A DNA stretch of 61,391 nucleotides, filler included, from Jimgerdemannia flammicorona (Eukaryota), in assembly GCA_003990765.1 (NCBI GenBank). It is 2 parts of 2 records of this genome, joined end to end, with 100 filler letters (N's around TTAATTAATTAA, not from the genome) between each part and the next. Parts side by side here need not be neighbours in the genome. Positions count along the whole stretch, not along the records: positions 30,760 to 61,391 come from RBNJ01000433.1; 1 more part is not named here. The stretch is one strand, 5' to 3'. Shown one piece after another: positions 4,849-55,666 of the stretch (its first letter is position 1; each line of letters starts with the position of its first letter). Made by a program: the position numbers and the translations under genes. The notes under the pieces are model-generated. The model had not been told where the DNA came from. It worked only from the letters and a program-made list of their open reading frames with translations, and did not search any database.

Positions 4849-6441
4849 TGTCACATAGTGGGCGCTGAGTTCTCCAAGTATGTCAGATTCTCTTCAAGGT
4901 GTATCTCTTAGACCAACTACAAGTTTCTTATAAGCTAGTTCTATTGGAGTGCCTTCCCAAGGTCTTATAGTCCTCAAACTTCTTATCTTTAAACTGTTCT
5001 GTTGTCTCTTGGATTTACTTGCATGGAATTGAGTAGAGGACTGGAACTTTTGTGCTTCTGAGTGGTTGGGTACTTGAATGCTTGAGTATTTTTAATACTG
5101 ACTTTATTTCAAAGGAAATGAGAGGAACATTTATACAGAATGTAATTCAATAATTGCTAAGATATAAAGTTAAATATAAAATCCAATAACCAAATAAGAC
5201 ATTTGAACATAGAAAACTTCAGTTGTAAGTACAAATTCAAGTGCTCATACAATTGATTGTATAAGATCAGAATGCTGGAATAATTTCTGACAGTTGCATG
5301 AAGTCAGAATGCCAGAATATTCAAGTGTTCAAATAAATAGTTACACAAACAAATTAGAGTAGAATGTTCAGAATTCTGGGGGCTTCCTCTTCATCACTGT
5401 CATCAAGACTGGAGGTCAGGGACAGGATGTCTTTGAAGAAAATGAGGTCAGCAGATATTTCTATAAGAGTTTTATTCATTTTGTATGTGTCAGTTAGCAA
5501 GGTGATGTCATCACTGATTTGGTGGTAGTGGCAAGAAGATCAGGCGCTCTCTAATCTATGATGTTTTCCTCTACAAAGTAGGGGACAAATGTGGGATCTT
5601 GAGAGGGTCTGATCTGGATACTGGGGCCTTGGAATACTGAGATCAATTTTTCTAGAAATTGATCTGGATTGTTCTGAAGGATAGAATTCTAGAACTCTTC
5701 CACCTTATCACTTTTGAGAGTAATAGTGGATTGGGCTTCTGTGGCCATCATGGCTTTCAGTACATCTATGTAGTAGGCTGACAATTCCTTAAAGTCTGAG
5801 ACTCTGGTATACTCCAGGTTGGGGATTGACTAAGGTATATATCTAAAGACTTGATGGATCTTTTTGGCTACCCTCAATTTATATGCATCTATAGAAGTGA
5901 TATCTTGTATTTCTTGAAGACTGGCCTGAGGGAATTCCAGACAGAGGAGATTTCCTATTTCATATTCCTGCCACATCCAGAGATATTTGGTGGCAGTAGT
6001 AATCCTTGTCTCTATTTCATAACAGTAGAGAGTAAAGTGATAAGGGTCACTAATACTCAGGTTGAGGCTAGAAATCCTTCTGGTATATCTTTATGGCTCT
6101 TCTGATATCTTGGAACATCCTTTCTTAGACTGAGAAGCCTTAGTGATTCCTGGATCTTGAGGTTTGGCAAGTAGTAGGCATTTTATTTATAGTGAGTCTT
6201 TCAAACTATTTCAGAATTTTGTGAGTCTTATTTGAGTTACTGCTACTACAGTTTCTTAGTCCTTCTTTTATATTTCTTGAGATGTCTATTTTATAGTCAT
6301 CATGACTTATAGTTTGTTATCATTGCTTATCTTGTAGCCTATGTAAGTTATGCCATATAATCTTCTTATACTCTGATCTGGTGACTTATAAGAAAAGGCT
6401 ATCTCCTGTAATGATGTTACTATTCTGAGATCACCATTACA
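4849..6441 (-). mobile_element. Decayed long LTR-like relic containing an accessory ORF
   Basis: Minus strand: purine tract GAAGGAAGA directly followed by TGTAATGG at 6441 (same arrangement as the Gypsy PPT/LTR junction at 45137); TATAAAT...AATAAAG module at ~5100-5140 arranged as in the Gypsy LTR; probable TGTGACA end at ~4849. Confidence 0.5.
5354..6181 (-). pseudogene. Decayed homolog of the Gypsy accessory ORF at 45149-45979
   Basis: Translation across stops and frameshifts: MPTTCQTS...WQEYE/IGNLL...DAYKLRVAKKIHQVFRYIP*SIPNLEY...EAQSTITLKS...ILQNNPDQFLEKLISVFQGPSIQ...ADLIFF, colinear with the 45149-45979 protein. Confidence 0.8.
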
Positions 6442-7735: not shown

Positions 7736-7880
7736 GTGATCAAAGGTATCTGTTCATCTAGAGATGAAAGCGAAATAATGATACAATATGATGCTTATAA
7801 TTTATGGCTACATCTTGACTGTATTAATGAAATAAAAGATTCTCTAGATAAATTATATTACTGCCCTATATACAGTAGTG
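7736..7880 (+). pseudogene. PHD-finger relic
   Basis: IC-SSRDESEIMIQYDAYNLWLHLDCI...YYCPIY fits C4HC3 PHD spacing if Tyr codons derive from Cys by TGT>TAT. Confidence 0.55.
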
Positions 7881-7899
7881 TTAATAGTTATATATCTAA

Positions 7900-10100: not shown

Positions 10101-10201
10101 AAGGTCAGTCAGCTATGTAATTTTTCATAAACAGTCACAAAATTGCACAGTCATTATAAACATTCGACATGGTATATGCCTCTTCTATATAATTCTCTAC
10201 A

Positions 10202-13436: not shown

Positions 13437-13670
13437 TCAATGTTTTTGCCGTAATGTCGATCTACGCTAGGGAGGTATAACTATACTACGTTTTGCATAA
13501 TGTCAACTATGCTATGCTCACGTGATGTCAATCTTCATGATAAAACACCAATAACCCCGTGTCACTGAAATGACCATGCATCACCCCGAAATCCTAGGAA
13601 AGAAACCTCAAATAAATGATCGATTGTTCTATATTTGGGTGGAAACACACGGTATAAAAGACCGGCCCAA
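13437..13670 (-). repeat. Ngaro split repeat B2
   Basis: Near-identical to 13953-14185. Confidence 0.92.
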
Positions 13671-13704
13671 CCACTATGTATATATATGTAGGGTGAGGTG
13701 GGTG

Positions 13705-13952
13705 GTAATGAAATGCGTATGAATGTACGGAAGCACAAAAGCGTAAGTATAAAGCGCGTACTAAGTAATGTTGGGTGAATGGTAGAATTACATATAGAAG
13801 TAATGCGCCTACCGCGCTAGTACCAAAAAAGGAAAGACTACGCCTGATTTAGACATGCCTTAGACAAACAATGGCGTTGAAACATTTTGGGCGCTATATG
13901 CCCAAGACCTTCCTGCATTCATTGACCTGTGGTCTCGAGCGAGCCCCCTCAT
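13705..13952 (-). repeat. Ngaro split repeat A2
   Basis: Near-identical to ~18893-19140. Confidence 0.92.
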
Positions 13953-14185
13953 TCAATGTTTTGCCATAATGTCGATCTACGCTAGCGAGGCGTAACTATA
14001 CTACGTTTTGCATAATGTCAACTATGCTACACTCACGTGATGTCAATCTTCGTGATAAAACACCAATAACCCTGTGTCACCGAAATGACCATGCATCACC
14101 CCGAAATCCTAGGAAAGAAACCTCAAATAAATGATCGATTGTTCTGTATTTGGGTGGAAACACACGGTATAAAAGACCGGCCCAA
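13953..14185 (-). repeat. Ngaro split repeat B1
   Basis: Near-identical to 13437-13670; abuts A2 directly. Confidence 0.92.
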
Positions 14186-24909: not shown

Positions 24910-25149
24910 TCTGGCCCAAAGAGATTAGAACTTATCTCATGGTCATCGGGCCTGCCCGGGATATATATCCATAAGCAAGGGCCCTGTGTGGGTGAAAGAA
25001 TAGAATAGAGATAGATTGAAGAGTAAATGCCAGACCATGGTTATGGAATCCTGCACTATTATAGTCTTGGGACTCATCTCATAAGGCATGTCCTATGCAG
25101 ATCATCATGGACCGATTCTGCATCATAGTGGGCCATGCCAAATCATACA

Positions 25150-34385: not shown

Positions 34386-35091
34386 AAAGTTTACCAACCC
34401 CCCCCCTCCCAAAAAAGAAAAAAAAAAAAAATTAATTTTTCCTTTCGCCTCTTTCCATATGTGTTTCCGATCTGTTGTCACGGACAAACACTGCGGTAGC
34501 GCTATTATAACTCGAATCATAAATACAAAGTGTTTTTACTTGAACAATAAAGGGCACTCAAAAGGCTGGGATCTTTACACGTTATCCCTGTTCTCAACTA
34601 CTAACTTTGGGTCTCAATGACCGAATAAAAAACTAAAACAAAAGGTTTTACGAATACCTCTCCCTCACATGTTACATTTCCTGTAGTTGTGATTAATCAA
34701 AACCTTTTCTCATTGTCAATAACTCACTTGGCTATGCTTTTATTTGATAATAACATCTAACTTATGTACATCCGTCTACCCATTGGTTCATTCCTTTCGA
34801 ACTGACTGCTTTTGACGTCTGTCCGTCTGTCGGCCCAACCATTCTTTTTCTTAAATTATCACACTTGAACATCCAGGTAAGTAGTTATTTTCTTTCAAGC
34901 AACAGTTTGATGTGAAAAATAAAATAAAATAAAAACAAAGAGAGGGGGAAGGGAAAGTATACAACAAAGTGGTGAGGTTTCACTATAATCATCAGAATAT
35001 GTTATAATTAATCACATTTTTATATTTGTATTCACTCTTTAGTTTAATAATTACTCCTACTATGTCAGATTCTATCCAACCATCTGAGATC

Positions 35092-35122
<31 letters not shown>

Positions 35123-38100
35123 GTTACTCAGACTTCCCTTTATTACCACAATTTATAAATAATAATATAATTTCACCTCCCACCCCTCACCCAATATCTC
35201 TCAGATCTCTTTCTCTACTCTCCATTCCTCTCTATTAGAGAATGACTCAACCACCTACCACCTTAACCCTCTCTCCACTTTTCTAGCAAATACAATTCAC
35301 CAAACTCTACTGGTCCCCCCCACCTGGGTCTCGCTCTCTCCACCAGTTATTCAAAATGTCAAGTAGTAACTATTCCCATCATACCACTTTAGTTCTAACC
35401 TCAATCCACTGGTTCTCTTCAAATACATACAATCAATGTCCAGCCAGCCCAATCCAAATCACCAAAACCCAGCCCAAGATCAACTATTCGTCTCTAACTC
35501 TGCCTACTAGCCTTTGGCAGAGGTTCCCCCATCTCTCCCCTTCCCCCCCCCCACCAGGGCCCACAGTTCCAACTGATTCACAATATGGTACCAAAACTCC
35601 CCCAGGACTTTACACTTGCCAAGCCAATGTTCAGACATTTGTATCACTCCCCCCTCCTAGTCAACATCCATACATTCCTCACACTCAAATGTACCATCTG
35701 CTACCAAGTACCCAGACCAATATTTCAGCATCACATTCTGCCTCAGAAACCTCCACCAAACCACCCAGAACTTGGGGGGAAAGCCACTGCATCACCTGCT
35801 TGCTCCAAGTCCAAAGACCATTCCAGTCTCACTTCTTACTGATCCCTACTCTCAGCCATGCCACAGGCCATAGATCCCCCCCTAGGCCCTGTATGTAATC
35901 CATTCCATTACCAAGTTGGAAATCCTCCACCAATGTACCTCCCAGCAATAGCCTGTTCCATCTCCACATCTGCAGGCCCTAGTTCTCTTCCCCCTCATCA
36001 CTCTGCTACTGAAGTTCAATTCTCCTCACACCATCTACCACCCTCTACCAAAAGCCTTTATACTATATTCTCCTGCTTCCATTCAGAGCCACTATTGTAA
36101 GCAGGTCACCAGTTACTCTATGAGGGGAATACCAGACTTCCCACACTCTCTACATGAGAGGTACCCACTCCTGACCCCTCAACTCACTTACTCTCTTCAG
36201 CCACCATGCTCTCAGACAATGAAGGTGTTTGGTAAAGTCTACCAAGCCTAGCCCTCCTCTATCAACAGACAGAGTCAGAACCTCTCAACCTATCTGACTT
36301 TGCCATCCAGCCCAGATCTATGATCTTGCCATCTTCAGAAGTCACCTGACCACCTACACCAGGAAGTTCAGATGATATCCTATATATCATAGCTTTGGCA
36401 GCCAGTACACATTCAGTACCATCACCCTTTCTGCCAAGAATATATGCTGACCACCCCACCTCAAGAGCATATTTCCCTACACTAAAAGCTACTATTCCTA
36501 CCATGCATCGGGTAAGAGAGACCTATATACCAAAAAGTAGATCTCCAGATACCAAACCAGTTCTCCTGCTGGTACCACTGTTCCAATCACATCACTGCCA
36601 ACTATTCTGCCACCTAGCACCAGAGTCTCATATTTGTGGCAATTGAGTTTAGCTCCCAAGCCCCTCTTATACCATTCTACAGATCTTCTTAATTTCTCTA
36701 CATCTTCCAATGAACCTAGTCCAACCACCATATTATCTGCAAAAGCTCCAACTTTCCAGTTAATTCCCAAAATATCCAAACCCCCAATTTGATGTCTGAT
36801 CCTGTCTAATAAGAGCTCCAAGAAAAGGGCATATAAGATAGGTGACAAAGGATCTCCTTGAGCACCTCATGACCTAGTGGAAAAGTCACACCTCTGTGTC
36901 CATTCACTATCAATACTACTTAACTGATCTCCAATAGACTGATTAATGACCTCTTGAACCCAGAGGGAACTCTCACTCATTTCAGTACCCCCTCCAGCCA
37001 GACCCTCTACACTCTGTCATATATCTTCTCTTGATCCAGAAACACTAACCAGTCATTCACCCCAGCTACCTGAGCTCCTTCACCAACAAATCCCCACTAT
37101 TCTACTCCTAGTACCTGCTGAGTGATCCCCTGCAGTCTAGTCACCAAGATCTTAGTTACCAGCTTACAGACCATATCAAGGAGCATGATCAGTCACCAGT
37201 TCTTCCAATCTTCTCTTCTCTCTTTATCCTTATATAGTAAAGAGACAAGCCCCAAGCACTGGCTCCCAATCCATGATTCAGATCAAAGGACCTCATTACT
37301 CATTGCTGTCATCTCCTTCAATACCACTTCCACCCTGGCCATCTTCTTCCAAAAATCCCAGGAGAGCCCATCCTCTTCTGGAGCAGTTCCTTTGCATGTT
37401 GAAGCCAAGACCTTGCATACTTCCTCCCCCTTCACTGGATCCCCCAGTGTCCCCAGGCCCAGAGCTGAGTCTGGATACCAATCCTCCAACTGCCATTCAA
37501 TGTTCAGGGCATCCTCCCTCCCTTCTTCCTCACTCCATAAATTCCCCCAGTGAGTCCTCAGCAATTTTAGAATCTTAGAAGTCCCTGCCACCATCACCCC
37601 ATCCTCATCCAGAATCTCCTCCTACCACTGTCTAGTTCTCCTAGCCTGAAGCAACTGTGAAAGAAATCTGGTGGACCTCTCTCCCTCCTCCAATCCCTAC
37701 CACTACAGCCTCACCACTATTCCCTTTGACTGAACCTCTTTCTCCATTTGTAGCACTTTCTTTAACTCATCAACTTCCTTTTGTATCTGCTGAATTCTCT
37801 AATCTGCTGTCCCCCAATCCTCCAGTGACTCTGCCCATCTCCCCAGAAGTGTCTCCAATCTCTGTGAAGCCCATCGCACTTGCCACTACCTCTGAGCACT
37901 CCTCCCTTTCCCCACCTCCCTCCAGTATCTCTGAGCACTTGATTTCAGCTGCTGCCAGCGATCCCCAATCACAAACCCCTGCTCCTGCCATCTACAAATC
38001 TTCTCAATAACTTCTACCTCCCAGGCTATCCATAAGGAACCATCCTCCAGCAAAGAAGAATTCAGCCACCAATATCCTGGTCTGTCCCCACTTCCCCCAA

Positions 38101-38730
38101 ATCTCCTACCCCTAATCAGACCCCAGTGATCTGACCATGGGCACCAAACCACCTCCAGTGCATCCCAGACATCTACTTCCCAGCACTCAGCCATCAATAC
38201 CCAGTCAATCCTAGAGTCTAGTCCTGCCACCCAGTGGGTATGAATTTGGTAGTCCACTCAGAACCATTGCCCTGAGTCAATCAGTGAGCTCAACCTCTCA
38301 ATCTCCATCCAATTATTTAATCTGCCACTTTGGCCTCTAATTCCTCTCCCACCATCAGTCCTGTCCATCCCATTATTCTGTACTATATTGAAATCCCTCT
38401 CCAGACAATCAATCTCAGCCTCACCCATGACACCAGCCTCCCTCAGGCCTCTGATCTAATCTATGTATTCCCCCCTCTCAGCTGGGCAATAACATGACCC
38501 AACAATTAAAGGATTCCATCCAGGCCTCTTCCATACTCCCTACACCAACCTACTCCCCCAATATCCAATATCCACAATATCACCTATCCCCTTTCGAACC
38601 AGAATGCCCACCTGCCCAGTCATACAGCTGCCCCACCCCATTCTCTAGTCCAGTCCAGTAAGTCCATGTTGACCTCATACCATACATCCTGTAGTAAGAA
38701 GAGATCTACATCCATATTCCTAACTACTAA
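35092..38730 (-). mobile_element. LINE, ORF2 plus poly-A tail, decayed
   Basis: Poly-T and family 3' terminus at 35092-35150; SPILYAL, FADN, APEEDG, SRIDWVL, WSDH, LFLLQD motifs on the minus strand. Confidence 0.9.
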
Positions 38731-38759
38731 TCAAAAGTCTCCAAGTACTTCACACTCTC

Positions 38760-39850
38760 TCAGCTAATGTTCTGGCATCTGCATACACCCTCCTTTCTGT
38801 TCTATATTATAACACTCCTTACAATCAGAGTGGTCACCCTCTATAAGATGACCTGAACAAAAGTTGAGCATGATATTCTACCTCAGTAAGTGTCATCAAC
38901 CTACCTAGAACTTAGGTGGTAGCCATTGCTATGTCTCAACACTTTAGGTCCAGACTCTATTCCAGTTCTACCCCTCTCTAATACCTACCATCTGCCAGCT
39001 ACTAGAATATACATCCTATCCTAACTCTCTCTGGTACTCTATACTATCACTAATATTGAAGTTAATCAGTTGAGTACTCTCTAACAATACTTGATCTTAT
39101 CTCTATATCACTAGACCCCATGGCATCTCTCCCTTAGTCCCTTGCCAGTAAAGACCAATATGATATACCCCATTAACTACTCTCTACCAGAAGCTCTTAT
39201 ACTATATGCACCCACTGTTCCAAAGCCCAACCAGAGACAGAAGATCTCCTGTAGAGCCTCTTGGTGAGAACTTCATCTTCTAGACCTTTTTCTTCATTAG
39301 AACCTAGCTACCACCTCTCAGTTCCACAGTTCTCTTTAACCATCAAGCTCTCAGACAATATAATCTCTTTAGAAAGTCAACCAGTCCAAGGCCTCCTCTA
39401 TCTACTGGCAGTGACAGAATTTCCAAGCTAATCTGACTCTATCTCCCAGCCCAGATCCAATCTTTAGTTAGCTTCAATAGCCTCTTTACTACCCTGGCTG
39501 AAAAGTCCAGATAATATGCTAAATACCACAGCTTTGGCAGTCAGTAGACATTTAGGATTAAAACATGCTTCATGAGATATAGTAGTCTCTCCAGTTCCAC
39601 AGGGTCTTTCTCTAAATAGCTATCTGCTGCTTCTACTAAGTTCTAGATAGGACTGACCTATAGATCAAAAGATAGATGCCTAAGTACTACATGGCATCTC
39701 TAGCAGAGATAATTGTTCCAATGATATCCCCTCTTACCAGATAATTGTCCAACACTATTATTTCATACTTGTATTAGTTGAGTTTAGCCCCAGAGTATAC
39801 CTTATACTACTCTACTATTTCCTGAAGTACCCCAATATCTGCAATTGATC
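38760..39850 (-). mobile_element. Older LINE ORF2 fragment
   Basis: Similar to the post-RT region (LPKLWYLAYYLDF at ~39500-39545), heavily mutated. Confidence 0.65.
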
Positions 39851-40939: not shown

Positions 40940-41899
40940 GCAGTAAATTTCTCTCATTATTATAGAGATGATCAGACTAATACAATTAGTTTGTACAGCT
41001 TAAAAACTATACTCAGAGATTTTCTACTTTCTGATGTTTTGTCTATATATGTATATAAGATAATCCTGAATAGCAAGATTCAATATATGGGCCTGATAAT
41101 ATATATAGTAGTTTTCTATACTAAAGGCTACATTTTTCTATTTAAGGCTAACTGTTAAAATTTGGAAAAATGTTGAGTTATTTGTAATATTTTCCATTAT
41201 AATGGTCAAAATCTATACTTGAAATATGTATTTAGGTGACAAATTTATGTCAAAATAAATAATCATTAAAATCTGTTTTATTTTAAGACTTTTCTCAAAT
41301 ACTGACCTAAAGGTAAGCCTTTTCTTTTTATCTTAGTTGTGATCCCAAGCTTCCAAATATCTAATAAAAGTATCTGCAATATTTTCTTTAGAATAAGAAC
41401 CAATAAGTTTGATGAAGTCAAGAATAAGAGATTTAAGTTACCAATAAAGATCAATCTAATGATCAGTAATACTCAGAAATGAAATTACATTAAGGGATAT
41501 CTATATATTGATTGTATATAAAATTCTGTCTGCCAAATTCTCTTTATTGAATATGAGATAAAATTGGTAAGTTCTTTATATATATATACATATAATTCAG
41601 CTTGTAATAATCATAGTATTGTTCTTATTTATTTATTTTACCTGAAGTATCTGGTAAAGATTGTCATGTCCTTTTCTATAGATCTCCAGAATATCTTTAT
41701 GAATAGTATCAGTACTTGGCAGATATAAATCATGCTTGAGAAGACCAAAGATACTATGCAATTGATCACTCTTAATGATTATAAATAGTTAGTCTGTATA
41801 TACCATCTAGTGAATGAGTCAATTTTGAAATTCTGGACTAAATATTTTTAATTAAATAGGATTATTGATACAGAAATAGTTGGGCAATCAGATAAATAT

Positions 41900-42397
41900 T
41901 GTAATAACTCTTATTTCTACCCCTCTCTTATCCTTTGAATAATCAGGGAAATAAGGTATTATTTAGAGACTTAGTATACAATATATACCAAGAAGCCTTC
42001 AGTGTAAAGAAGTGCTTACTTACATAAAAGTAGTTATAGTGACAATGCCTTTCTTATCCTTCTTATCAACCATAGTTATAAGAGACTTGTTCTTTGCTGT
42101 GCACAGACTGAATTCACCTTAGAATTCAGATTCAATTGGGGTTTATTTAAGTTTTTGTAATTTATATACTTATCTCAATTCTGGTAGAAGTTAGCTAGAT
42201 TTCTAAAGTTTAGTTAGAAACACTAAAGTCACTTAGATATTATTACTAAGACTCAGGAGAATAGATATGTAGAGAGGGGGCTTGATTCTTATATCAAGGA
42301 CTAAACTAAAACTGCTTTATTTTGAATAGAAATTGGGGGGTATTTATACAAGTTGGTTTGCAATTTTTGACTAAATATAAGTAACTAATTTGGTAAC
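41900..42397 (-). mobile_element. Partial LTR of the same Gypsy family, interrupted by a LINE
   Basis: TGTAATAACTCT...CTACCCCTCTCTTATCCTTTG matches 44336 and 52684; stops at AATTTGGTAAC where a poly-T tail begins. Confidence 0.9.
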
Positions 42398-44335
42398 TTT
42401 TTTTTTTATTTTATTTTTTTTTTATAGTCACTTAGACTCCTTTATTATGGAACTATCTAATAAAACAAGATCCTATCTGATAACTACTATAAACATAAAT
42501 ATAAAGAAGGGCCTATCAGCCAACTCCTTCTTTCCACCACACCCCCTTCTCACCAAGCACTAGGTGCTCTTGACTTTTCTGGACAATGTCTAGTATCTTT
42601 CTCATGGCTCCCAACTGGTACCTCTTCTCCTGATATCACCACCCTTACACTACTTCCAGAAGCAACCCCTTCCACCACTCCACCAATTTGCCAATCCCCA
42701 TCTAAGGATCCTTCTTGAACACCCATTGCCAGTGCACCACCATCAGGAACCAGATGCCAATAATCCAGCCTAGGCCCCCCCAAATGTCTCCAATCTCTCC
42801 CACCAGTCACCGCTTGACCACCCGACTAGTGGGGCCCCCTGCATGCTCACTTTTGCCACTTCAGTAGCTTTCTAACGTCTGCCAAAATCCCTCCACCTCT
42901 GGGCATACTGCCATGATATGCTCTAGTGTCTGCACCACCCCCCCATCTAGCTCACAACACTACTTGCATACCCTCACACCTTCAGCCTCCATCCACTCTG
43001 TCCTGTACCCCAGCATGACATTTCTCCACAAAAATCTCCACCATGCTACTCAGAACTTAGATGGTACAACCTTGAGCAATGAGGTCCTCCATCTCCCAAC
43101 CAGGCCCCACTCCCAATCCTCTCCAAACTCAGCCTTCTGCCAACCAACTGGCTATCTCTCAAGTGGACCCATCTGGATCCATTCCATTGCCCCAGACAGA
43201 GAGTATTCTGCCAACCAGTGACCACCAATATGAATATCACCAAGTTGCCACCATCTCTATTCCATGTCCTCCTCTTCACCCAGCTCTGGACCTATGAGGC
43301 CCATTGCCAGCCAAGCTTCCACAATGCCCCACCAGAACCCCCAGTACTGCAATCTGCTAACCCTTCCAACCTGTAGCAACCTATGCATATCCTTCTGAAC
43401 CTCACTATAGGGGCAAAACCTGACATCCCAATTGTCCATAGCTAGTTTTCCCCAACTATCCACTCTCAATTCTGCCAATCAACAACCCCACCAACCCTGA
43501 AGCACCTTCAGCCACCTCCGAAAATCCACCAACCCCAATCCACCATCTACTGTATGCATCACTACTGTCTCCCAACTAATCTGTAGTTTTCTTCCTTGCC
43601 ACAGCCATCCTTCTACTACCTTCTTCAGTTTCTGTACCACCCAACTAGGAAAGTCCAATGATACCCTAAATACCATAGCTTCGGTAGCCAATATACATTC
43701 AGAACTACAATTCTCCCCACTAAGGAGAAGCTCCTCCCTGACCAGCCCACCAAGGCATTCTCCCACTTCTGTATCATTCCACTCCACCACTCCTTCAGCA
43801 AAAATACTGAGAACCAGACACCTAGATATTGGACTGCCTCTCCTGTACAGTCCAGTTGACCAAAATGTCCATGTTCTCCCAAACCAGCTCTCAGCTCCAT
43901 AGTCTCACACTTGCCCCAATTCAGCTTCACCCCTGCCAGCCTCTCATACTGCCCCACTCCTTCCTACAAGCTTGCCATATTGGCCATACAGCCTAACCCT
44001 ACCATCATATTATCAGTAAAGACCCCTAGCTTCCAGACTACCTCCCCTATCTTCAGTCTGATGAGCCTTCTCTTCAGCCATACCAACAAAAGCTCTAAGA
44101 ATAAAATATAGAGTAGGGGCAAAAGAGGATCCCCCTATAGCATGCCTCTCTCCAAGACAAACTCTGGGCCACTCTACCTATTCATTAGCACTACAGCCCA
44201 GCAGCCTTGCACCAGGCCTATTAGTTTCTGAGCCTCTACTATACTGAACTCCACCTTCTGTAGAACTGCCTTCAAATAGTTCCACCTCACCCTATCATAT
44301 GACTTTCCTGATCTAAGAATACCATTCTCCCATTC

Positions 44336-45137
44336 TGTAATAACTCTCACATCTACCCCTCTCTTATCCTTTGGATAATTAGGGAAGTGGACTATTACTT
44401 AGAGACTTAGTATACAATGTGTACCAAGAAGCCTTCAGTTTAAGGAAGCGCTCGCTTGTAAGTAAGTATAGCTGCAGTGCCTTATCTTTCAAAGGTCTTT
44501 CTCAGATTTGCCTTCTGTTTCAAAGGTCTTTCTCTTGTGCTCTATTTCAAGGGCCTTGTTCTTTGCTGTGCATAGACTGAATTTGCCTTAGAATTCAGAT
44601 TCAATGGGTTTACTTAAGTCATTGTAATTTATATACTGATCTCAGTTCTGGCAGAAGTTAGCTAGGCTTCTGGAGTTTAGTCAGAAATACTAGAGTCACT
44701 TAGATGTCATTACTAAGACTCAGGAGAATGTGTGTGTGTGGGGGGAACTTGATTATTGTATCAAGGACTGAACTAAAACTGCTTTATTTCAGATGGAAAC
44801 TGGGGGTATTTATACAAGTTGGTCCACAATTTCTAACTAAGTATGAGTGACTAATTTGGTAACTATAATGAGGTTTGTGATTGTGATCTTTATTACATGG
44901 TTTTTGATAAAGAATATCTTTGTGATCAGGACCTCAATTACTAGGCAATGATCAGTAGCTGTGGCAACAGTTGCTGTGGTACTGATTGTCAGGGATAAGC
45001 TAGATATCGTTTTCTGCATCGTTTTGCATCATTCGCATCATTAGCATTGTTCATCATTTATATGTTGTACTTCATTCATATGATGATGTCATCGCCATCA
45101 GGTCACATAATCGTTCATCATGCCTCATTCTATTATA
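44336..45137 (-). repeat. 3' LTR
   Basis: TGTAATAAC...CTATTATA (CA end mutated); matches 52684-53455; carries an extra ~30-bp internal duplication. Confidence 0.95.
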
Positions 45138-45150
45138 TCTTTCCCTCCTT
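45138..45150 (-). promoter_or_regulatory. Polypurine tract
   Basis: AAGGAGGGAAAGA immediately 5' of the 3' LTR. Confidence 0.9.
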
Positions 45151-45979
45151 AGAAATCAACATCCTCATTGATTGAGAAATTGAGAACCAGAGGAGAGATA
45201 GGTGGGGAATCCTGTTCAGGGATGTTGGCATCTTCTTCAGTAGCAGGGGGGGTGGTGGTTGCTGATGGCTTGTTGTCTAGGATGGAGAAGTCAATGAGGT
45301 CTGCAAATAGTTCTTGTATTGGGATAGGTGCTAGTGTAGGGGTTCTCCATCTGATGCAGTTGAGGCCATCCAAGTAGAGTTCTTGGTCCTCATGCCTGGG
45401 AATATCCATTTGGATGGGTGGTCCTTCAAAGAGGTCAGAGAGGCCTTAGAGCCATTGGTCAGGGTTGTCATTCAGGAGGGGGCTCCAGTAGGGTTTGCAG
45501 TCAGTGGACTTGAGGGTGATCCAGGAGTTGGCTTCTTAGGCTACCTTGATTTCTAGTTCATCAACCTCGAAGAAGGAGAGGTTCTCGAAGTCCTTCAGTT
45601 GGACATAGTTGAGGTTGGAGATTGCAAAGGGTACATGGCACATGATTTGATAGACCTTCTTGGCAAGTCTTTGCTTGCTCCCATCTAGGTGGGTCCAATC
45701 GGAGACTTGGTCCATGGGCAAGTCCTTTGCCTGTTGGAGGAGTTGATGGCCAATCTCATATTCATGCCAGATCTCTAGGTGGCTGGTAGTAAGGTAGGCT
45801 CTTTCGATGACTTTACAGCAGTTGAGGACATAATGTCCTAGGTCCTGGCTGGAGAGGTCAAGGGCCTCTGAGCAGCAGTTCCTTTCTTAGATAGCCACCT
45901 GGATGTGTCCAAAGAGGCGATCAACCTGGCTTGGGAGGGGCCGGCTATGGTGGGCAGTTTAGTGGCAAGTAGCAGGCAT
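45149..45979 (-). pseudogene. Accessory ORF3 (~276 aa, unknown function) between pol and the 3' LTR
   Basis: Single reading frame from ATG 45979 to TAA 45149 with four internal TAA, each explicable as CAA>TAA; TATAAATA ~65 bp upstream; homolog at 5354-6181. Confidence 0.82.
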
Positions 45980-46604
45980 TCTTATCTTGTCCTTTTTTTT
46001 GTAAGGAGAGGGGGATGAGGGTTGCAGAGTATTCTTGCCTTGGGTATTTATACTTATTCACCTGTCTGATGTAACCTTCCTTTGGTCATGCTTTCTGGTA
46101 AAATGCATGACCTGTTGCTGTAAGTGGGGCATGTGCTGGTCACATGAGAAAATCCTGGTTTCGAAGATATCATCACTTGTAGTTATGGTTACACAGAGTT
46201 AACATGTCTTGGTCTTTTTTTTTTTTGTCTGGTTGGCACATTTGTGAGGACTGGCCATCCTTGTCTAGGGCGAGGGCTTCCATTGTTATGGCTGGGGGTT
46301 CAAACCTCTTGGAAATAGACTTTTCTTGTAATCTGAGGCAATTCCTAGTAACAATATCTATCACATAGATAGACTTAGACTGGTTTCAACATTGTCAGCT
46401 TTTCTAAGTTCCATATGAAGCATCCATCATCATCCAGTAGAGATGATACAGATAGCATGAACTGGAGTTATTCAAATGCATTTTGCTGTAATATGCTAGT
46501 CTTCTTGTTGGTTATCCATAGTATTCCTTTTTTCACAATGTTTGGTATTATATGTTTCTGGATAAGATATGTAGTATCCTTCTGCTCACTGTGTGCTCCA
46601 ATAC

Positions 46605-49600
46605 TTAGAGCTGCAGTTCCTTTCTTTGCTGGAGAGTGAGTGTTTCCATGTAGTTCTGGAGGGCTTTGCATGCATTCTTCAGGGCTTCTTCTTTTTCCCA
46701 GGTGGCATCATGGGTGGGGTAACCCTTCCACTTGATCAGGAAAAAGCACTTGACTGTTTTGGGATATTTGTGGACCTTGTGGTCAAGTACTTCCTCAATT
46801 TCGAATTTCTCATATCATTTATCCTAATTGGAAGTAGTGGTGGAATTGTATGCTCAGGGAATGGATTCTCATGGTAGTCCACCAATTGGCTGATATGGAA
46901 TACTGGGTGTACTTGGATATTGTGGGGAAGTTGCAACTTATAGTTGACTTCACTGATTTTTTCCATGATCTTGTATGGTTCAATTCTTCTAGTACAGAGT
47001 TTCTTGGCTGGTTGTTGTGCCAGGGTGTCTGGGTGGAGGTGGTCTGTTCTAAGCATGACTATGTCACCAATATTGTAGGAGGCTTCTCTTCACTTCAAGT
47101 TCACATACTTGGTCTGGTAGTCTTGTGCTTCTATGAGAGCATCTCTTGTCATTCGGATAAGGTCATAAATGGTCTAGGCCAGATCTTGGGCTGTTGGGAC
47201 TGCTGATTTTGTAGTAGTACTTGGGGTCCTCAGGTGTTGACCATGGTTCAGGAAGAATGGAGTCTTCTTTGTAGAGGTTTGCTGACTATTGTTGTAGACA
47301 AACTCAGCATGGACTAGGTATTTGTCCCAATCATTTTGCTTGTAACAACAGAAGATACTAAGCATCTGTTTGAGAGTCCTGTTGGTATGCTTGGTTTGAC
47401 CATCAGTCTGAGGGTGGTAGACAGTAGAGAACTTCAGCTTGGTTCTATGGAGAGAAAAAAATGCCTTCCAGAAGTTGCTTGTAAACTTGGCATCTCAGTC
47501 GAATACAATAGTACTAGGCATACTATGTAGCCTAAATACTTGATTGAGGAAAATCTTGGCAATCTCTAGTGCTATAGTGGTGGTCTTGGTGGGTACAAAA
47601 TAGGCTTATTTACTTAGGTGGTCCATGAATACCACAATGGTATCCCATCCTGCCTTGGTCTTAGGGAGTTGGACAATGAAGTCCATTGCAATCTGGTCCC
47701 AGTTGTGACTTGGGATAGATAAGGATTGCAGGAGTCTGGCTGGTAGCTTATTACCACTTTTAAACCTTTGGCACATCTCACATGAGGTCACAAAGTCTTT
47801 GATGTCCTTGGTCATCTTTGGTTAGTAGAACTCTCTTGAGAGGAGGTTGTAGGTTTTTTCGAAACCAAAATATCCTACTGCAGGAGTATCATGGAGTTCC
47901 TGTATAATCTTGAGCCACAGAGTATCATTGTTGGGTACAACCACTCTGTCATGGTCCCTGTAGATAGGTCCATCATGATAGGTGAATCTCTTAGCCATTT
48001 GCCTAATGGGTTCTAGAACCTCAGCCTCTGGATCTTGGCAGAATTGAAGAAAGTTTGTCAGGGGGCTGTCCTGCTGGTAGCCAACCTTGATCATTTGGGT
48101 AAGGTCTTCAATTACTTCGACCATGAAGACAAGTTCATCTTCTATGTACCTAGAGAAACCATCAGCCACATGGTTGGTTTTGCCTGGAATATACTTGATT
48201 TCAATATCAAATTTGGTAATGATTTCCATCCAGTGGGCTTGTCTGTGGGTCAGCATGAGCTGTATGTGAATATACCGCAATGCATGGTGATCAGTGTAGG
48301 CCACAAATGGCTGTCTTAGGAGGAAATGGCACCATTCCTGAAGTGCAGTGACAATAGCCAGGAGTTCTTTCTTGTGGGTAATATACCAGGTCTCAGCTGG
48401 CTTGAGCTTTTGGGAAAGGTAGGCCACTGAGCAGTCTTCTTGGCTGAGTACTGCCCCAATGGCAATGTCAGAGGCATCTGTGGTCAGAGTGAATGGTCTG
48501 GTAGGGTCAGGTATAATTAGCACTTGGGCCTCAGTAAGGAGTCTCTTGAGATGGTCCATAGCCAGAGTGTATTTGGGGGTCTATTTAGTTTTGATGTTCA
48601 CTTCTTTGTAGGCCAGGCTGGTTAGTGGGGCTGCAATAGCAGAGTATCCTTGGATAAACCTTTGGTAGTAACCAGCAATACCCAGAAAGCACTGGAGTAG
48701 CTTAAGGGTAGTAGGGATAAGGATATCCTTAAGGACTGATATCTTTTGGGGGTCTACATTGATACCTTCAGCAGAGATAATGTGTCCTAAGTATTCGATC
48801 TGGTCTTGATAGAACTTAGACTTGCTCATCTTGGCATAGAGCTGGTGTTCTTGCAAGAGGGTCAGTACTTGTCTGAGATGGGTGTAATGTAGCTCTACTG
48901 TCTCACTGTAGATTAGTATATTATCAATATATATAAGAATACAGATATTGAGGAGTGGTCCAAAGATGTCATTCATCAGATACTGGAATGTTGCTGGTGC
49001 ATTGGTCAATCCAAAAGGCATGACTCAGAACTGATAGTGTCCAAACTGTATTCAGAAAGCTGTCTTCTCAATGTCCTTCTCATCAATGAGAATCTGGTGG
49101 TAGCCATTTCACAAATCCAGTAGAGAAAGGTCTTGGCCTTGAAGATTTGGTATAGCAACTCATCAATCCTAGGTAAGACATACCGGTTCTTGATGGTGAT
49201 CTTGTTGAGGGCTCTATAGTTAATATACATTCACAGAGAGCCATCCTTCTTCTTGACAAATAGAATAGGGGCTCCAAATGGAGAGCAGCTGGGTTCAATG
49301 TATCCTTGGGCCAGTAGTTTAGTCAACTCATCCTTGAGGGTCTTGAGTTCAGGCTGGGCCAGTTGATAGATACTCTTGTATGGGGGTTCAGATCCTGGAA
49401 TAAGATCAATTCCATGTTGGATTTGGCACTTGGGTGGAAGTCCTTAGGGGTCTTAGAATATATCTTGGAATTCTTCAAACAGTTCTTGAGCTTCTGTTGG
49501 AATTGGGCTACTAGTAGCTTCAGTGACTTCTTGTACTATACAGATGAAGTAGATGTTTCCTTTTTTCAAGAAAGTCTCTTCATTTGAATGGCAGAGATCA

Positions 49601-50000
49601 TTTCGATTCCTTGGTAGTTAGTACCTTCCTGTGGTGTCAGAGTGATCTTTCTGCCTTCGTGAGTCAGGTTAACCTTGTTGGTTCTCCAGTTGATGTCTGG
49701 GTTGTGCTGGGTCAACCAGGCTTTTCCTAAGATAATATCTTGTCCTGGGAGGTCTACAATGCTGAAGTCTAACTTCTCTTGATATTTGCCAATCTTGAGC
49801 AAAAGATCTTTGCAGATCTTGGTCAATGGTACAGTTTTACCATCACCAAAGATAACACTTCTTTTCTCAGTAGCTGGTCTGCTTCAGGCTCCAATCCTCT
49901 TGGTGGTCTTGGTGCTGATGTAGTTTCCAGTAGCACTACTATCAAGCAAGACATTGATATTTTGTCTGTGGACTTGGCCTGTGAATTTGATGCAACTGTC
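46605..50000 (-). pseudogene. Gypsy pol: protease, RT, RNase H, integrase, chromodomain
   Basis: LLDSSAT, INYRALNK, MPFGLTNAPATFQ, YIDNILI, TTDASDIAIGAVL, NHVADGFSR, IAMDFI, YHPQTDGQT, and FEIEEVLDH...FLIKWKGYPTHDATWE. Confidence 0.95.
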
Positions 50001-50319: not shown

Positions 50320-50725
50320 ATAGATCCAAACCCTTTCTTGCCATGGTCTGTCTGGGAGAGTTCAGAGACTTCTTCAATGGTGAGATCTTGATGAATTTCT
50401 TCAATAATTGTTTGGGCAATCCTTTGGCCTATTTGGACTTCAAATGATATGTCTCCAAAATTTTGCAAGATGACATGGATTTCACCAGTAAATCCTTGGT
50501 CAACTACTCCTCCTCCTAGTCCAATATTGAACTCTTTGGCTAGGCTGCTTCGCTCAGTAAGGCAGATGTATGTTCCTTTGGGGGCTTGCATTGCAATTCC
50601 TGTTTGCACTGTAGCATTGGTGCTTGGTGGAATAGTGAGGTCTTGACTGCTATAGAGATCATATCCAGCATTGGTTGGGTGGGCCTTAGTGGGGATGGTA
50701 GCCTTGTACCATAGCTTCTGTATTT
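50320..50725 (-). CDS. dut: dUTPase domain within the Gypsy polyprotein
   Basis: All five trimeric dUTPase motifs: AGYDL, RSS, GVVDQGFTGEI, RIAQ, HGKKGFGS (R>H); in frame with the upstream zinc knuckle and downstream protease. Confidence 0.93.
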
Positions 50726-50819: not shown

Positions 50820-52610
50820 ATATTTGACTGAGATGTGTCCTGTCTTCTTGCAGATGAAGCACAATCCTTTTTCACAGAGCTACTTCTTTTCATCCTTAGT
50901 GGAAGGTCTGGGTCCTCTGTGATTTTGCTGGTTCCTTTGATCATTCTGTTGATCATATCTTTGATCATTCCTTTGATCATTTCTTTTGGTAGGGTTCCTT
51001 CTATCTTGGTTATCCTTCTTGTGTTCTTGATTTCATGGAGCTTATGCAGCAAGGATTTCATGGGCTCTTCTTTGTACTAGAGCAAAGTACTATGAGTAGT
51101 GAGGACATTCTTGGGGAAGACCTTGTTCCTTGATCTTCTGGGTGATCCAGTCTGGTAAGGCTGCAAATAGGTAGTTGGCTCTGGTACCATTGATGGCCAA
51201 ATTGTTCTTCTGGTAGGTAAGTCCAACAGTTTTGAGATAGGCATCCATTCTGGTGGCAAAGGTTTCTAGATCTTCTTCACCATTCTTGTGGAACTTCATC
51301 TGGGAGAGCTTATTCCAAGTTTCTTATATATAGGTTGCATTTCAGAATTTAGTCAGTAGCAAGGCCTTGAGTCCTGGGCCTACTTCATAGTCATCCTAAC
51401 CAGGTCTATTGTTGGTAGAAGCTTGTCCAATGACTTGGGGGCAGATTTCCCAGATTACTGGGTATTGTTCCAAGGTTTGCCAGAATTCGGCTGCTGTTCC
51501 AGTGAAGAAAGTAGCTACTGTTTCTACTTGTGCTGCTGATGTGGCAAACAGCTGTTGAAGGGTGCTGTTCTTGTTTTTGGTGAGCATTCCTATAGGCACT
51601 CAGTTATCATTCCATTGATTTGCTCAGTAGTCTGTATCAACTGCATTGATGAAGTTTTCAATGTCACTGTTTTTTCCACTGAATGTTGGGATTTGCAAAG
51701 TCTTGATTAGTTTGTTCTGTTCAGTAATCTGTTATACTATCTCTACTAGTGCTGCTAGCTGGGTGGTCAGTGCTGCAATATTGGTATCTACCATTGTGTT
51801 GACTATTGGTGGTGGGCCTGTTGGGGTAGATTCTCCTAAAGATTGATCTGCTTGGTGGAGTTGTGGGGCTGTATGACTTGGAGTTACTTGATTCCCAGAT
51901 ATTAAGTCAAAGAGTTCTGTAAGAGAGAGTAAACCAAATCTCTGTATAGGTGGCTGAGTTGGTTCTTGGGTCTGATCTTCTTGACCTGTGGTTCCTTGGT
52001 AAATTCCTAGGCCTACTGTTCCTCATTGGCTATCATCAGACTGGTAACCTGTAGAGTCTTCATCTGACTCCCTTCCCTGATGAGATAGTATGTCCTCATA
52101 CTGGCTAGGTCCTTCAAAGAGGATATTAGTCTCTGGCTGAGTAGATGGGCCTGCTCCTTGTTCAGCAGTAGGGGATGAGTGGCCTGCTTGCTCATTCTCA
52201 TACCTAGTTATGGCAGAGGCATAGTATACAACTAGCCTGTAGTAGAGGGAGGTCTTGGTTGGGGTATGATGATATCTGTTAGAGGCAATCCACTCGGTAG
52301 CTACTTCTCTTGCAGCAGGGGGTGTGATATAATATAAAAAATCCTGGGTGGTTGCAGCAGTAGATTCTGGGGTCCTAGTGGTTCCAATGTGTCCTCAGAG
52401 GAGTTCGTAGAACCTATGGCAGCTGACAATATTCCTAAGTCCCAGGTGGTATGTCCTAAAGGCCTGGTATAGATCCTTATAAGCCTGGTCAATTATAAGC
52501 TAGTGGGTCCTTGGGTCTGTGGTTTTCTGATACCACCTGGTCCTAATGGCAAGGGCTTCTCTGGCTCTGGTTTAAGGATCCACAGTTATTTCTGGGGGTT
52601 ACTCATGTCC
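50820..52610 (-). pseudogene. Gypsy gag
   Basis: IPTFSG..DIENFI and FTGTAAEFW capsid-like motifs; CFICKKTGHISVKY knuckle with last C>Y; 5' limit approximate. Confidence 0.8.
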
Positions 52611-52669
52611 AAGGTTGGTCTTGTTCTAACTTCAGGAGTGTGTTCTTGATGTCTTCTTGGCTGGTAATC

Positions 52670-52680
52670 CAGTACTACCA
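52670..52680 (-). promoter_or_regulatory. Primer binding site, tRNA-iMet type, CpG-decayed
   Basis: TGGTAGTACTG 3 nt after the 5' LTR equals TGGTAGCGCCG (Ty1/Ty3 iMet PBS) with only CpG transitions. Confidence 0.7.
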
Positions 52681-52683
52681 TGT

Positions 52684-53455
52684 TGTAATAACTCTCACTT
52701 CTACCCCTCTCTTATCCTTTGGATAATTAGGGAAGTGGACTATTACTTAGAGACTTAGTACACAATGTGTATCAAGAAGCCTTCAGTTTGAGGAAGCACT
52801 CACTTGTAAGTAAGTATAGTGGCAGTGCCTTATCTTTCAAAGGTCTTTCTCTTGTGCCCTATTTAAAGGGCGTGGTTCTTTGCTGTGCACAGACTGAATT
52901 TACCTTGGAATTCAGGTTCAATGGGTTTACTTAAGTCTTTGTGATTTGTATACCAATCTCAGTTCTGGCAGAAGTTAGCTAGGCTTCTGGAGTTTAGTCA
53001 GAAATACTAGAATCACTTAGATATCATTACTAAGACTCAGGGGAATGTTTGTGTGTGGGGGTGACTTGATTCTTGTATTAAGGACTGAACTAAAACTGCT
53101 TTATTTTGGATAGAAACTAGGGGGTATTTATACAAGTTGGTCCGCGATTTCTGACTAAGTATGAGTGACTAATTTGGTAACTATAATGAGGTTTGTAATT
53201 GTGACCTTTGTCAGGTGGTTTTTGGTAAAGAATATCTTTGTGATCAGGACCTCAATTACTAGACAATGCTCAGAAACTGTGGCAACAGTTACTGTGGCAC
53301 CAATTGTTGGAGATAAGCTGGATATCATTTTCTGCATCATTTCGCATTGTTTGTATTATTTGCATCATTCATCATTCATATATTATGCTTCATTCATATG
53401 ATGACATCATCACTGTCAGGTCACATGATTGTTCTTTGTGCCTCGTTCTATTACA
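52684..53455 (-). repeat. 5' LTR
   Basis: TGTAATAAC...CTATTACA. Confidence 0.95.
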
Positions 53456-53795
53456 CATTCACTTGCTGGCTTCTACAACCCTTCAAAATATTTTGCACCC
53501 AGGCTGTACTATCTCAGATCTGTCTCCTCTTCACAAACCCTCACTGTTCTTTACACACCAATTGGCCAATCCATTGTTGCATTCTCCCTGTTAGAATCTT
53601 GGAGACCAGCTTTCTGTCCACATTCAGTAATATAATAGACTGTGGGCTCCTTCCTCTACTACCTTACTGGTCACAAGATTTAGTAGGTGACCTTCTGAGT
53701 CCCCTTTCTCCTATTGTTACCTCCTCTACCTTGGGTTGGTTTGCTGTGCCTGTAGGGGCATAGTGGGAGGAGGGCAATGGTCGAGTCAAAAGACC

Positions 53796-55665
53796 ACCTT
53801 TCTCCTGTACAATTCATATTATACAAAACTTCAAGCAACAGTTTTCAATACAACTCAGAGAAAATATATTATAAGGATATTATCAAGCAAGAGTTCTGAT
53901 GGGCATGCTGGGTCAGGTGGACCTGGGGCTTTCAGCTGGCAGCAGGTGGGGAGAGGTTATGGATTAGGGATGGGGGCTTTTGGAGAGTCGATGGTGGGAG
54001 AAGACTCTAGAGGTGGACCAGTGTCTGGTGGATCTGGAGGAAGGTCTGGTCCCCCCAGCTTTGCCAACAAGGTGAAGGCAGGTAGATGGCCTACTGGGAC
54101 AGGGGCTGGTGCTGCTGAGGGGAAGGGCAAGGCTAGTGTCAGGAGGGAGAGTGGCCCTCTGGGGGGAGCAGTGAGCATAAGGGCCAGTGGTACTGTGGCT
54201 GGGGGTGTGACTATTGATGGGAGTGTGATGGGAGATCAGGAAAAAAAAAGAGATGTGGTGGCTGATGGTAGAGTGGGGCAGGGGTTTCTGATGCAGAAGG
54301 GAGACCTGGCTCATGGTATAATGGGGCTGGCAGTGGCACCATTACTCAAGAAATCAATCTTGGAGTTTGCGGTGATACTGTGCTTCTGAGGCTTAGGGAT
54401 GACGGTGAGGATGGTCTTGGGGCTTATCTCAAAGAAGGTGGCTGGGGCGGCTTCGGTGAAATTCCTGAAGGGTCTGGAGGGAGTTGAGGTGGGCTTTGAG
54501 GAGGTGGGCTCACTAGAAGAGGTGCTGAGGGCTGGAGTAGCAGTTGGGGAGGTGGTGGTTCCTATGGTGTACTGTTTGAGATGGGACCCCAGAGTGGTGC
54601 AGCTGCTGGTGAAGAGAGTGCCCACAGTAACAAAGGAGGAGATGAGGAGGAGGGTAGAGGAGGTGATGGCAGAGTATGGAGATGTGGTGGATATTGGCTT
54701 CTAGGTGTGGGAGGGGACAACGATTAGGACAGGTAATGTTGATGTCAGAATTCAGCTGGCAGGGAGGGAGACCACAGGGAAGGCAGGTGACTGGCCCTCA
54801 GTGTTGATGTGGGGGGCATTTATTTGTAAGGTGTCGAGGGTGAAGGGGAGTGAGGAGGAGGAGGAGGAGGATTTGTTGAAAGCATTGGAGGAGATGAGTG
54901 ATATAGTGGAATGGCAGGCAAAGGCCTGAAAGCTCTATGAGGAGTCGATACACCTGGAGATTGTAGAGGGGAAGCATATCTGCACTGACAAGAGGCAGTG
55001 GGAGCAGGCCCAGGGGTGCTTGAGGCAGAGGGAGCTCTTGGCGAGTATGACAGGAGGGGAGAAGAGGAAGGTGGATGGAGCTGAGAAGTCTGGAGGCGTT
55101 GAAGCAAGTATATGGACTAGTGAAGGTGGAAAGGAGGTAGTGGTAATAGAAGAATAGGCTGCGAAGGTGCTAGGTAAGGATCCCTATGCAGATGGTACTT
55201 TCAAGGTCTGGGAGAAGGAGTCAGATAGCACCCCCCCCCCCACTTGTCAGGAGGGGCCCGGTGGGGCGGAGAGGGGTGGCAGAAGATGTACCAATACAGG
55301 GGGCCCAGTGAGTTACCTTTGGGGTCCCAGATGTGGCAAAAGGGGGCCAGGTGGTGGCAGTTAGTGAGGATGTCCCAGAGGAGGAGTGGAATGAGGATGC
55401 CAGTGTAGGTGCTGATACCATGATGCTGAATGTAGGGTGGCCAGGGACCTCTGGAGGGAAGGAGATTGGGAATCTGCTGTGGATGAGCAAGGTGATGGAT
55501 AACCTTACAGCTGAGGTGCTGGGGGAAGTGGATCTGAGGGTCATGCCAGAGGAGCACTGGGCATGGATTCTGTGAGGTGATGGAGTGGTGGAGGTGCTGA
55601 AGATGGAGATTCTTACTATATTACTGAAAGAAGAGGGTTATGAGGTGGATGAGGTGAGGAAGGCA
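53796..55665 (+). mobile_element. LINE 5' UTR plus most of ORF1, interrupted by a sister copy
   Basis: Highly similar to 55667-57543; breaks at GAGGAAGGCA. Confidence 0.9.
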
Positions 55666-55666
55666 T

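Follow-up and report, generated by a model that had tools for sequence, protein, structure and literature searches.

The Locus and Its Carrier Element

The window, that is, the whole stretch of 61,391 nucleotides of Jimgerdemannia flammicorona DNA analysed here, contains a Ty3/Gypsy element inserted within a LINE-like reverse-transcriptase frame (Table 1). The pair of long terminal repeats (LTRs), together with GAATG at both ends, demonstrates that this is one complete insertion of 9,120 bp with a 5-bp target duplication. In an alignment of the two LTRs, 690 positions match, 81 differ and 32 columns contain gaps (89.5% identity, K2P 0.116).

The gag region gave no match in Pfam, and a zinc-knuckle remnant of the form CX2CX4H can be made out by eye near nt 50861–50820. 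A dUTPase follows, and after it the protease and the pol domains, with Pfam E-values of 1.2e-18 for RVT_1, 5.7e-29 for RT_RNaseH, 1.1e-18 for Integrase_H2C2 and 3.5e-18 for SH3_Tf2-1; the integrase core (rve) scored E 1.7e-4, under its cut-off. Pol closes with a chromodomain, in whose frame the first stop lies near nt 46607. The carrier is a chromovirus: it has the LTR pair, the target-site duplication, a primer-binding site (read by eye), a polypurine tract (PPT), and the order protease, reverse transcriptase, RNase H, integrase and chromodomain.

Pfam was also run on 14 of the 26 window ORFs of at least 170 aa, namely those outside the element that are not opposite-strand overlaps. Four matched, all of them to non-LTR retroelement domains (reverse transcriptase, endonuclease), and ten matched nothing.

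Table 1. Features of the element, its additional ORF and a second copy of that ORF, in window coordinates.
Feature	Position	Strand	Basis
5′ target-site duplication GAATG	53456..53460	minus	same 5 bases at both element ends
5′ LTR, 772 bp, TG...CA	52684..53455	minus	alignment to 3′ LTR
Putative primer-binding site, TGGTAG..., 3 nt past LTR	52663..52680	minus	by eye
gag region with stops and frameshifts	51036..52394	minus	position, frames
dUTPase, between nucleocapsid knuckle and protease	50322..50705	minus	Pfam PF00692, E 3.2e-31, 108 bits
Retroviral aspartyl protease	49656..49838	minus	Pfam RVP_2, E 6.6e-05, 23.2 bits, cut-off 20.3
Reverse transcriptase (C-terminal part), RNase H, integrase zinc finger, integrase core, Tf2-type SH3	46871..49024	minus	Pfam
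Integrase chromodomain	46644..46805	minus	Pfam Chromo PF00385, E 1.3e-12
Non-coding spacer from pol to additional ORF, 625 nt	45980..46604	minus	DNA homology to L001 nt 1–375
TATAAATA, candidate TATA box 5′ of ATG	46045..46052	minus	sequence; promoter activity putative
CT-rich block and A run, ATG-free leader	45993..46020	minus	sequence
Additional ORF, 276 codons, 4 internal TAA; pseudogenised copy of an accessory-protein family	45149..45979	minus	homologue searches, dN/dS, related contigs
PPT GGAGGGAAAGA, abutting the ORF stop	45138..45148	minus	read from sequence
3′ LTR, 802 bp, first TG reads TA here	44336..45137	minus	LTR alignment
3′ target-site duplication GAATG	44331..44335	minus	same 5 bases at 5′ end
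Degraded paralogue, second subfamily, stops and at least 2 frameshifts	5354..6181	minus	tblastn

The Additional ORF and Its Decay

Between the end of pol and the PPT with the 3′ LTR lies a separate sense ORF, which is the position of the class called aORF-3S. Its reading frame differs from that of pol. The ATG is at nt 45979–45977 and the terminal TAA at nt 45151–45149, and the translation begins with MPATCH and ends with EDVDF. The terminal TAA abuts GGAGGGAAAGA (nt 45148–45138), and the 3′ LTR starts at nt 45137. Internal TAA codons are found at codons 7, 31, 148 and 178 (nt 45961–45959, 45889–45887, 45538–45536 and 45448–45446); a standard ORF listing displays the gene as the pieces 45149–45409 and 45536–45721 alone. 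An earlier note on this DNA had described a 276-codon sense ORF that follows a chromodomain, ends on the PPT and is broken into pieces in the ORF track by four stops. The minus-strand reading and the Pfam match to the chromodomain agree with this anatomy in full, and the strand alone had to be added.

Four soil-metagenome DNA runs from two studies match nt 45100–46400, with shares of 0.05–0.13, and related copies are numerous in them; a search for RNA runs matching this interval gave none. Run X1 yielded 732 pieces in likeness classes of 73, 217, 303 and 139, the 73 being at least 99% alike. At the junction of LTR and primer-binding site, related copies carry TGGTAGCAGCAGATT, as seen at a loose end at nt 44336 in run X1. 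A 3-nt in-frame deletion in the tail of the ORF is present in two metagenome contigs.

These runs bear on the origin of the stops. Stop codons 7 and 178 begin at nt 45961 and 45448, and a plus-strand G there corresponds to a C in the coding strand. At nt 45961 all covering contigs have G (X1, 42/42 depth, 7 contigs; X4, 13.3/13.3 depth, 3 contigs). At nt 45448 the depth with G is 53.8/53.8 in X1, 4.53/4.53 in X2, 4.73/4.73 in X3 and 50/58.5 in X4. Therefore both stops are CAA in related copies, and the CAA to TAA origin that had been suggested holds for at least two of the four stops (codons 7 and 178; among the rows listed, 40 of 497). At codons 31 and 148 the aligned relatives have R/E and N/Q/T/H.

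The same kind of change predominates in the LTRs, where transitions make up 67 of the 81 substitutions. Sorted by context on the C-bearing strand, they comprise 44 at CpA, 11 at CpG, 9 at CpC and 3 at CpT, against background counts of 233, 24, 108 and 223. The observed/expected ratio of CpG in the element is 0.08. This pattern is both a RIP-like CpA bias and a strong decay of CpG, and it is consistent with a fungal host. The additional ORF, gag and pol of this old copy would all have been killed by C-to-T transitions.

Relatives and Selection

Nine related proteins were retrieved, with 27–61% identity; eight are uninterrupted, and the ninth is a fragment. A phmmer search of 1.84 billion representatives gave five proteins at E ≤ 0.001, three of them at E ≤ 1e-30: P0002 (1.6e-78, matched by the word-index search too), P0003 (2.9e-57), P0004 (5.3e-35), P0005 (1.8e-10) and P0006 (3.0e-07). 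P0009 (325 aa) and the N-terminally truncated fragment P0010 (E 1.7e-4) came from word-indexed and profile searches, and P0007 and P0008 from a cluster look-up. No further homologue was found among the 1.84 billion representatives or in a collection of 5.8 billion clusters. All relatives are unnamed or called "hypothetical protein", and they sit on contigs of 0.6–4.8 kb.

The family comprises at least three subfamilies: the window type with P0002, P0007 and P0003; P0004 with P0008 and P0005; and P0009 with P0006. Their starts are alike (MPATCH, MPALRTNHH, MPPIRNN, MPPTRRSN, MPTTCQ), and the blocks LEIWHEYEIGH, AKKxHQIFRHxP, LEAxVAxEAxS and LQDNPDQWLQGLxxxFEGPPI are common to the subfamilies. 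No fused form of 600–2000 aa was scored, which is weak evidence, and a search of viral contigs for the family gave no match. The ESM Atlas offered two leads, an unnamed 244-aa cluster with the best score (0.92) and a Mucoromycota-labelled eukaryotic cluster of 259 aa (0.89); the recognition value was 2174, under the mark of 2300. No published description of the protein family was found, a weak negative for a family that has no name to search for.

One relative has a known DNA context. The metagenome contig L001 (1,535 bp) holds an intact family ORF of 291 codons, whose stop is followed by GGAGGGAGGA and then by the LTR start TGTAAT. This stop/PPT junction, at nt 1249–1261 of L001, is the same as that of the window copy, and it is thus seen in two lineages. 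As far as these sequences reach, the family appears to be present across copies and lineages rather than to be the product of a single transduction.

Comparison of the window ORF with L001 over 264 codons (NG86) gave dN 0.30, dS 1.33 and dN/dS 0.23. By region, dN/dS is 0.17 in the core, 0.41 in the tail and 0.32 in the head, and identity at the three codon positions is 0.68, 0.78 and 0.55. Judged by codon substitution, the accessory family evolves under purifying selection. Because some of the divergence of the window lineage accrued after its death, the true constraint should be stronger than 0.23 suggests. The earlier note had proposed a separate accessory ORF inside the element, and it had named a match to an already described ORF and a dN/dS near 1 as findings that would speak against it. 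Both were looked for and neither was found; the position within the LTRs and target duplications, the dN/dS of 0.23 and the shared PPT junction all sustain the proposal.

A Second Copy in the Window

The window holds a degraded paralogue at nt 6181–5354. By tblastn it is 38% identical to the additional ORF over 153 aa (E 1e-31), with the N- and C-terminal parts in other frames, and it is closest to P0004, P0005 and P0008. TATAAATA ends 2 nt 5′ of its ATG, a geometry unlike that of the main copy. The surrounding DNA is AT-rich and heavily degraded. With the gag and pol pieces of the element, tblastn detected nothing outside the element at E ≤ 1e-3; Pfam found no family in the six frames of nt 1–14000; no LTR-like repeat pair was found around the paralogue, and its flanks displayed no homology to those of the main element. 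Since no recognisable pol or LTR lies beside this paralogue, not every copy is demonstrably element-borne. The paralogue may be a free copy or what is left of a related element.

Properties of the Predicted Protein

The longest run of the residues AILMFVWC is 3–4 residues in five of five family proteins. With no hydrophobic run of more than 4 residues, the protein is not env-like, in agreement with the earlier note. Judged by hydrophobic runs and predicted models, it has neither a signal peptide nor a membrane helix.

The proteins consist of a core with a pI of 5.2–6.4 and a tail of 56–126 residues with a pI of 4.05 and a net charge of −11 to −22. Conserved in the tail are the motifs F-x-D-L-I-x-F and P-x-V-L-N-F, or W/F-containing equivalents. 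AF2 modelling of a full-length intact relative (8 rows) reached a mean pLDDT of 48.6. The core alone (residues 17–218 of the L001 ORF, 9 rows) reached a mean pLDDT of 65.5 and a pTM of 0.58; the model is all-helical with one long helix, apart from two short strands at the end. No long hydrophobic helix is seen in the models, which are of low to middling confidence. As modelled, this looks like a soluble protein with a folded helical core of about 200 residues and a disordered acidic tail that bears short motifs.

The earlier note recognised no domain, and no Pfam family scored above its cut-off for the window ORF. A candidate, MRPL52, was rejected at E 0.032, under the Pfam cut-off. Four intact relatives matched no Pfam family at E ≤ 1, and for the additional protein NCBIfam gave no family, PHROGs a single match at E 0.093, and a sequence profile search of the PDB no match at E ≤ 10. 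A wide VIA search with the full-length model had a best Z of 3.9. The fold searches with the core model stayed at noise (Foldseek against PDB, E 0.72; VIA wide, Z 4.5; BFVD, E 0.46) and matched the core, at low to middling model confidence, to no DNA-binding fold. At such model quality these nulls are evidence neither for a new fold nor for the absence of a known one.

Upstream Region and Expression

The candidate TATA box TATAAATA lies 65 nt before the ATG, with the CT-rich tract (nt 46020–46001) and a run of A (nt 46000–45993) downstream of it, so that this part of the earlier description also holds. L001 has TATAAAAG 72 nt 5′ of its ATG. The leader block CATCCCCC...ACAAAAAA is common to the window copy and L001; in both, the first ATG downstream of the TATA box is that of the start codon, and an A stands at position −3 of the start codon. 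In filamentous fungi, core promoters classically have a TATA box followed by a CT block.

The spacer is homologous to nt 1–375 of L001, and a common patch is in different frames in the two copies. As the spacers are homologous throughout, the motifs shared with L001 may be due to mere descent. The conservation of the block from TATA to ATG is not clearly above that of the rest of the spacer, and by arithmetic about 0.5 TATAAA would be expected by chance in a 625-nt spacer of 40% GC. From these motifs, a promoter of its own is plausible for the additional ORF.

The protein would be made from a subgenomic mRNA with its 3′ end in the 3′ LTR. This mRNA may start at the candidate TATA/CT-rich internal promoter, a reading that we hold at a little under even chances. 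Only slightly behind it comes splicing from the LTR transcript, in which the same accessory gene would have no promoter of its own and would be expressed through a splice acceptor upstream of the ATG, the route taken by barley Bagy2 and by retroviral env. The TATA box would in that case be there by coincidence, and so would the CT tract, unless it served as a polypyrimidine tract. Splicing is the reported route for those sense 3′ additional ORFs that have been studied (Vicient & Casacuberta 2020, PMC7264820), the pyrimidine tract does precede the ATG, and CAG/TAG candidates occur upstream in both the window copy and L001. Against this, past the pyrimidine tract the ATG is preceded in both copies by AAG only, not by YAG, and the YAG candidates, compared by eye, are at non-conserved positions. 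Joints in the metagenome contigs are single low-depth DNA contigs and have no bearing on splicing.

Origin and Possible Role

The additional ORF is probably a true accessory gene of a retroelement, lying in sense orientation after pol and ahead of the 3′ LTR in a Ty3/Gypsy element that has both a chromodomain and a dUTPase. It is improbable, by comparison, that a host gene or fragment was transduced by one chromovirus lineage and travels with it as a passenger that contributes nothing to the life cycle of the element. The paralogue at nt 6181–5354, with no detectable pol or LTR adjoining it, would suit a passenger, and LTR elements are known to have captured ORFs in bdelloid rotifers (PMC5408684) and plants (PMC7264820). 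However, the degraded AT-rich surroundings of that paralogue would make pol hard to see. Moreover, at least three diverged subfamilies (27–61% identity) keep the start and, where DNA is available, the stop/PPT junction; dN/dS is 0.23 between the window ORF and L001; and the searches of 1.84 billion representatives and of the collection of 5.8 billion clusters yielded no other homologue, nor is there a match in Pfam. Despite the four stops of the window copy and the lack of a recognised domain, a fortuitous open frame or a relic with no coding function is very hard to credit in the face of the dN/dS of 0.23, the pattern of identity across codon positions and eight uninterrupted homologues, the best of them at E 1.6e-78.

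As an accessory gene product, the protein may serve the element as an adaptor. Its helical core would bind a component of the element or of the host, and short linear motifs in its tail, or an acidic surface there like that of an activation domain, would bring in a host factor. The acidic tail, studded with aromatic residues, is the sole hint toward the roles of transactivator or silencing suppressor. On the modelled architecture, a transcription activator is unlikely; with its acidic to neutral character the core departs from most DNA-binding domains, which counts against this reading. Interference with silencing is less likely still, and some other adaptor role takes the larger share of our expectation. 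The family is known from about nine protein clusters and from short contigs only.

The foamy viruses use an internal promoter of the TATA type to drive a 3′ accessory gene, Tas, a transactivator with an acidic C-terminal region. By analogy, the element could belong to a "complex" lineage of fungal chromoviruses, of independent origin, in which an internal TATA promoter drives a regulatory gene that transactivates the LTR or blunts repeat silencing; we consider such a lineage quite unlikely.

Most records of extra genes in LTR retrotransposons come from plants and animals, and for hardly any of these genes has a function been established. The present element is a clean case in a fungal-type chromovirus, with a soluble protein family under selection, a conserved start, the PPT junction, several subfamilies and a candidate internal promoter. 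Its intact relative L001 is a copy that can be expressed and assayed. If the protein regulates transcription or silencing, a "complexity" like that of retroviruses evolved in fungal retroelements too; if it does not, the gene is one more unnamed additional ORF.

Comparison with Known Systems

ORFs added between pol and the 3′ LTR form an established class, whose sense members are mostly env-like (PMC7264820). The additional ORF described here resembles aORF-3S in position, in orientation and in conservation across copies; none of the nine relatives retrieved is a named cellular protein. The plant and insect aORF-3S cases in that review are mostly env-like proteins with transmembrane segments, whereas the present protein is predicted to be soluble and to combine a helical core with an acidic tail. 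Unlike the cases described there, it is also found in a fungal-type chromovirus that carries a dUTPase.

Fungal chromoviruses had been expected to encode gag and pol only. This stands as a rule and fails as an absolute. Novikova et al. (2010, PMC2864245) depicted an "additional ORF with unknown function", and also a dUTPase, in fungal chromoviruses, and an antisense additional ORF is described in Boty of Botrytis (PMC7264820). Llorens et al. (2009, PMC2774666) refer to additional genes in fungal chromoviruses and cite the work on dUTPase for this. The additional ORF in the legend to Figure 3 of PMC2864245 is like the present one in that it belongs to a fungal chromodomain Gypsy element, a likeness that goes by description only. 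The dUTPase-bearing fungal elements reported there are from Postia, Phanerochaete and Tuber. A link to the Tuber elements was considered, since dUTPase-bearing Gypsy elements are reported from Tuber, and set aside, as nothing in the literature consulted connects the two.

Gene23 of maize Grande is reported to be transcribed from a promoter of its own and to code for a nuclear protein (Gomez-Orte et al. 2013, cited in PMC7264820). Compared by description, it is likewise carried as an accessory gene by a Gypsy element, in the 3′ internal region; gene23, however, is antisense to gag-pol in a plant element that is not a chromovirus, whereas the present ORF is sense. Plant Tekay chromoviruses have conserved additional ORFs at the 5′ side (PMC11728184).

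With foamy-virus Tas, the common points are the 3′ position of an accessory gene, a TATA-type internal promoter, here a candidate one, and an acidic C-terminal region, and Tas serves as a working analogy only. The additional protein displays no sequence or fold similarity to the viral protein models of BFVD, the best E being 0.46. Because additional ORFs of LTR retrotransposons, both sense and antisense and fungal ones included, are already in print, the present ORF is placed under a known kind. What is known is the niche of the additional ORF in LTR retrotransposons, and what is new is the unnamed protein family that occupies it.

Mutation signature and LTRs of the Gypsy element

Transitions make up 67 of the 81 substitutions between the LTRs (44336-45137 and 52684-53455). 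The per-site preference of these substitutions is CpG > CpA >> CpC > CpT, and the observed/expected ratio of CpG is 0.08 in the Gypsy element versus 0.36 in the window. The LTR substitutions together with the CpG depletion are a mixed signature, RIP-like plus methyl-CpG decay. At 44520-44550, within the 3′ LTR, there is a direct duplication of 31 bp (GAGAAAGACCTTTGAAA...) that is absent from the 5′ LTR. A third, more diverged LTR copy (Table) is 64-66% alike over 186-298 nt, with a 63-nt core at 87-89%, and is possibly a solo LTR from a related element.

The Gypsy element interrupts a LINE-like reverse-transcriptase frame, found at 43628-44335 (-) and again past 53460, with the TSD GAATG. The interrupted frame matches RVT_1 with E 3.4e-05, under the Pfam cut-off.

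Table. Further features of the window
Feature	Position	Strand	Remarks
Degraded paralogue of the extra ORF, second subfamily	5354-6181	-	stops and frameshifts
Tandem-like repeats	8029-10099		roughly 620-630 bp; in 22-23% GC DNA
Third LTR copy, more diverged	41882-42398		~2 kb past the 3′ LTR of the Gypsy element
dUTPase domain	50322-50705	-	Pfam E 3.2e-31
Direct repeats	53796-57543		period ~1,870 bp; 88-95% alike

Paralogue of the extra ORF and the spacer

In the degraded paralogue, TATAAATA stops 2 nt short of the ATG. The DNA adjoining this copy contains no recognisable pol or LTR.

The patch 46230-46281 (-) of the non-coding spacer between pol and the extra ORF is well conserved against nt 1-60 of L001, the metagenome contig with an intact relative, while the reading frames differ between the copies. 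The patch may be a cis-acting element.

Repeats and base composition

The direct repeats lie in G-rich DNA with a GC skew of 0.4-0.5. They adjoin parts of a non-LTR element: its APE-type endonuclease (57789-58766) and its RT (59278-59865). Blocks with a comparably strong skew occur at 25001-30000, and with the sign reversed at 35001-39000. The first kilobase, 1-1000, is extremely AT-rich (GC 14%).

The dUTPase domain

In the Gypsy element the nucleocapsid zinc knuckle is followed by the dUTPase domain and then the protease. A dUTPase between zinc knuckle and protease has been reported for certain elements of Postia, Phanerochaete and Tuber (PMC2864245).
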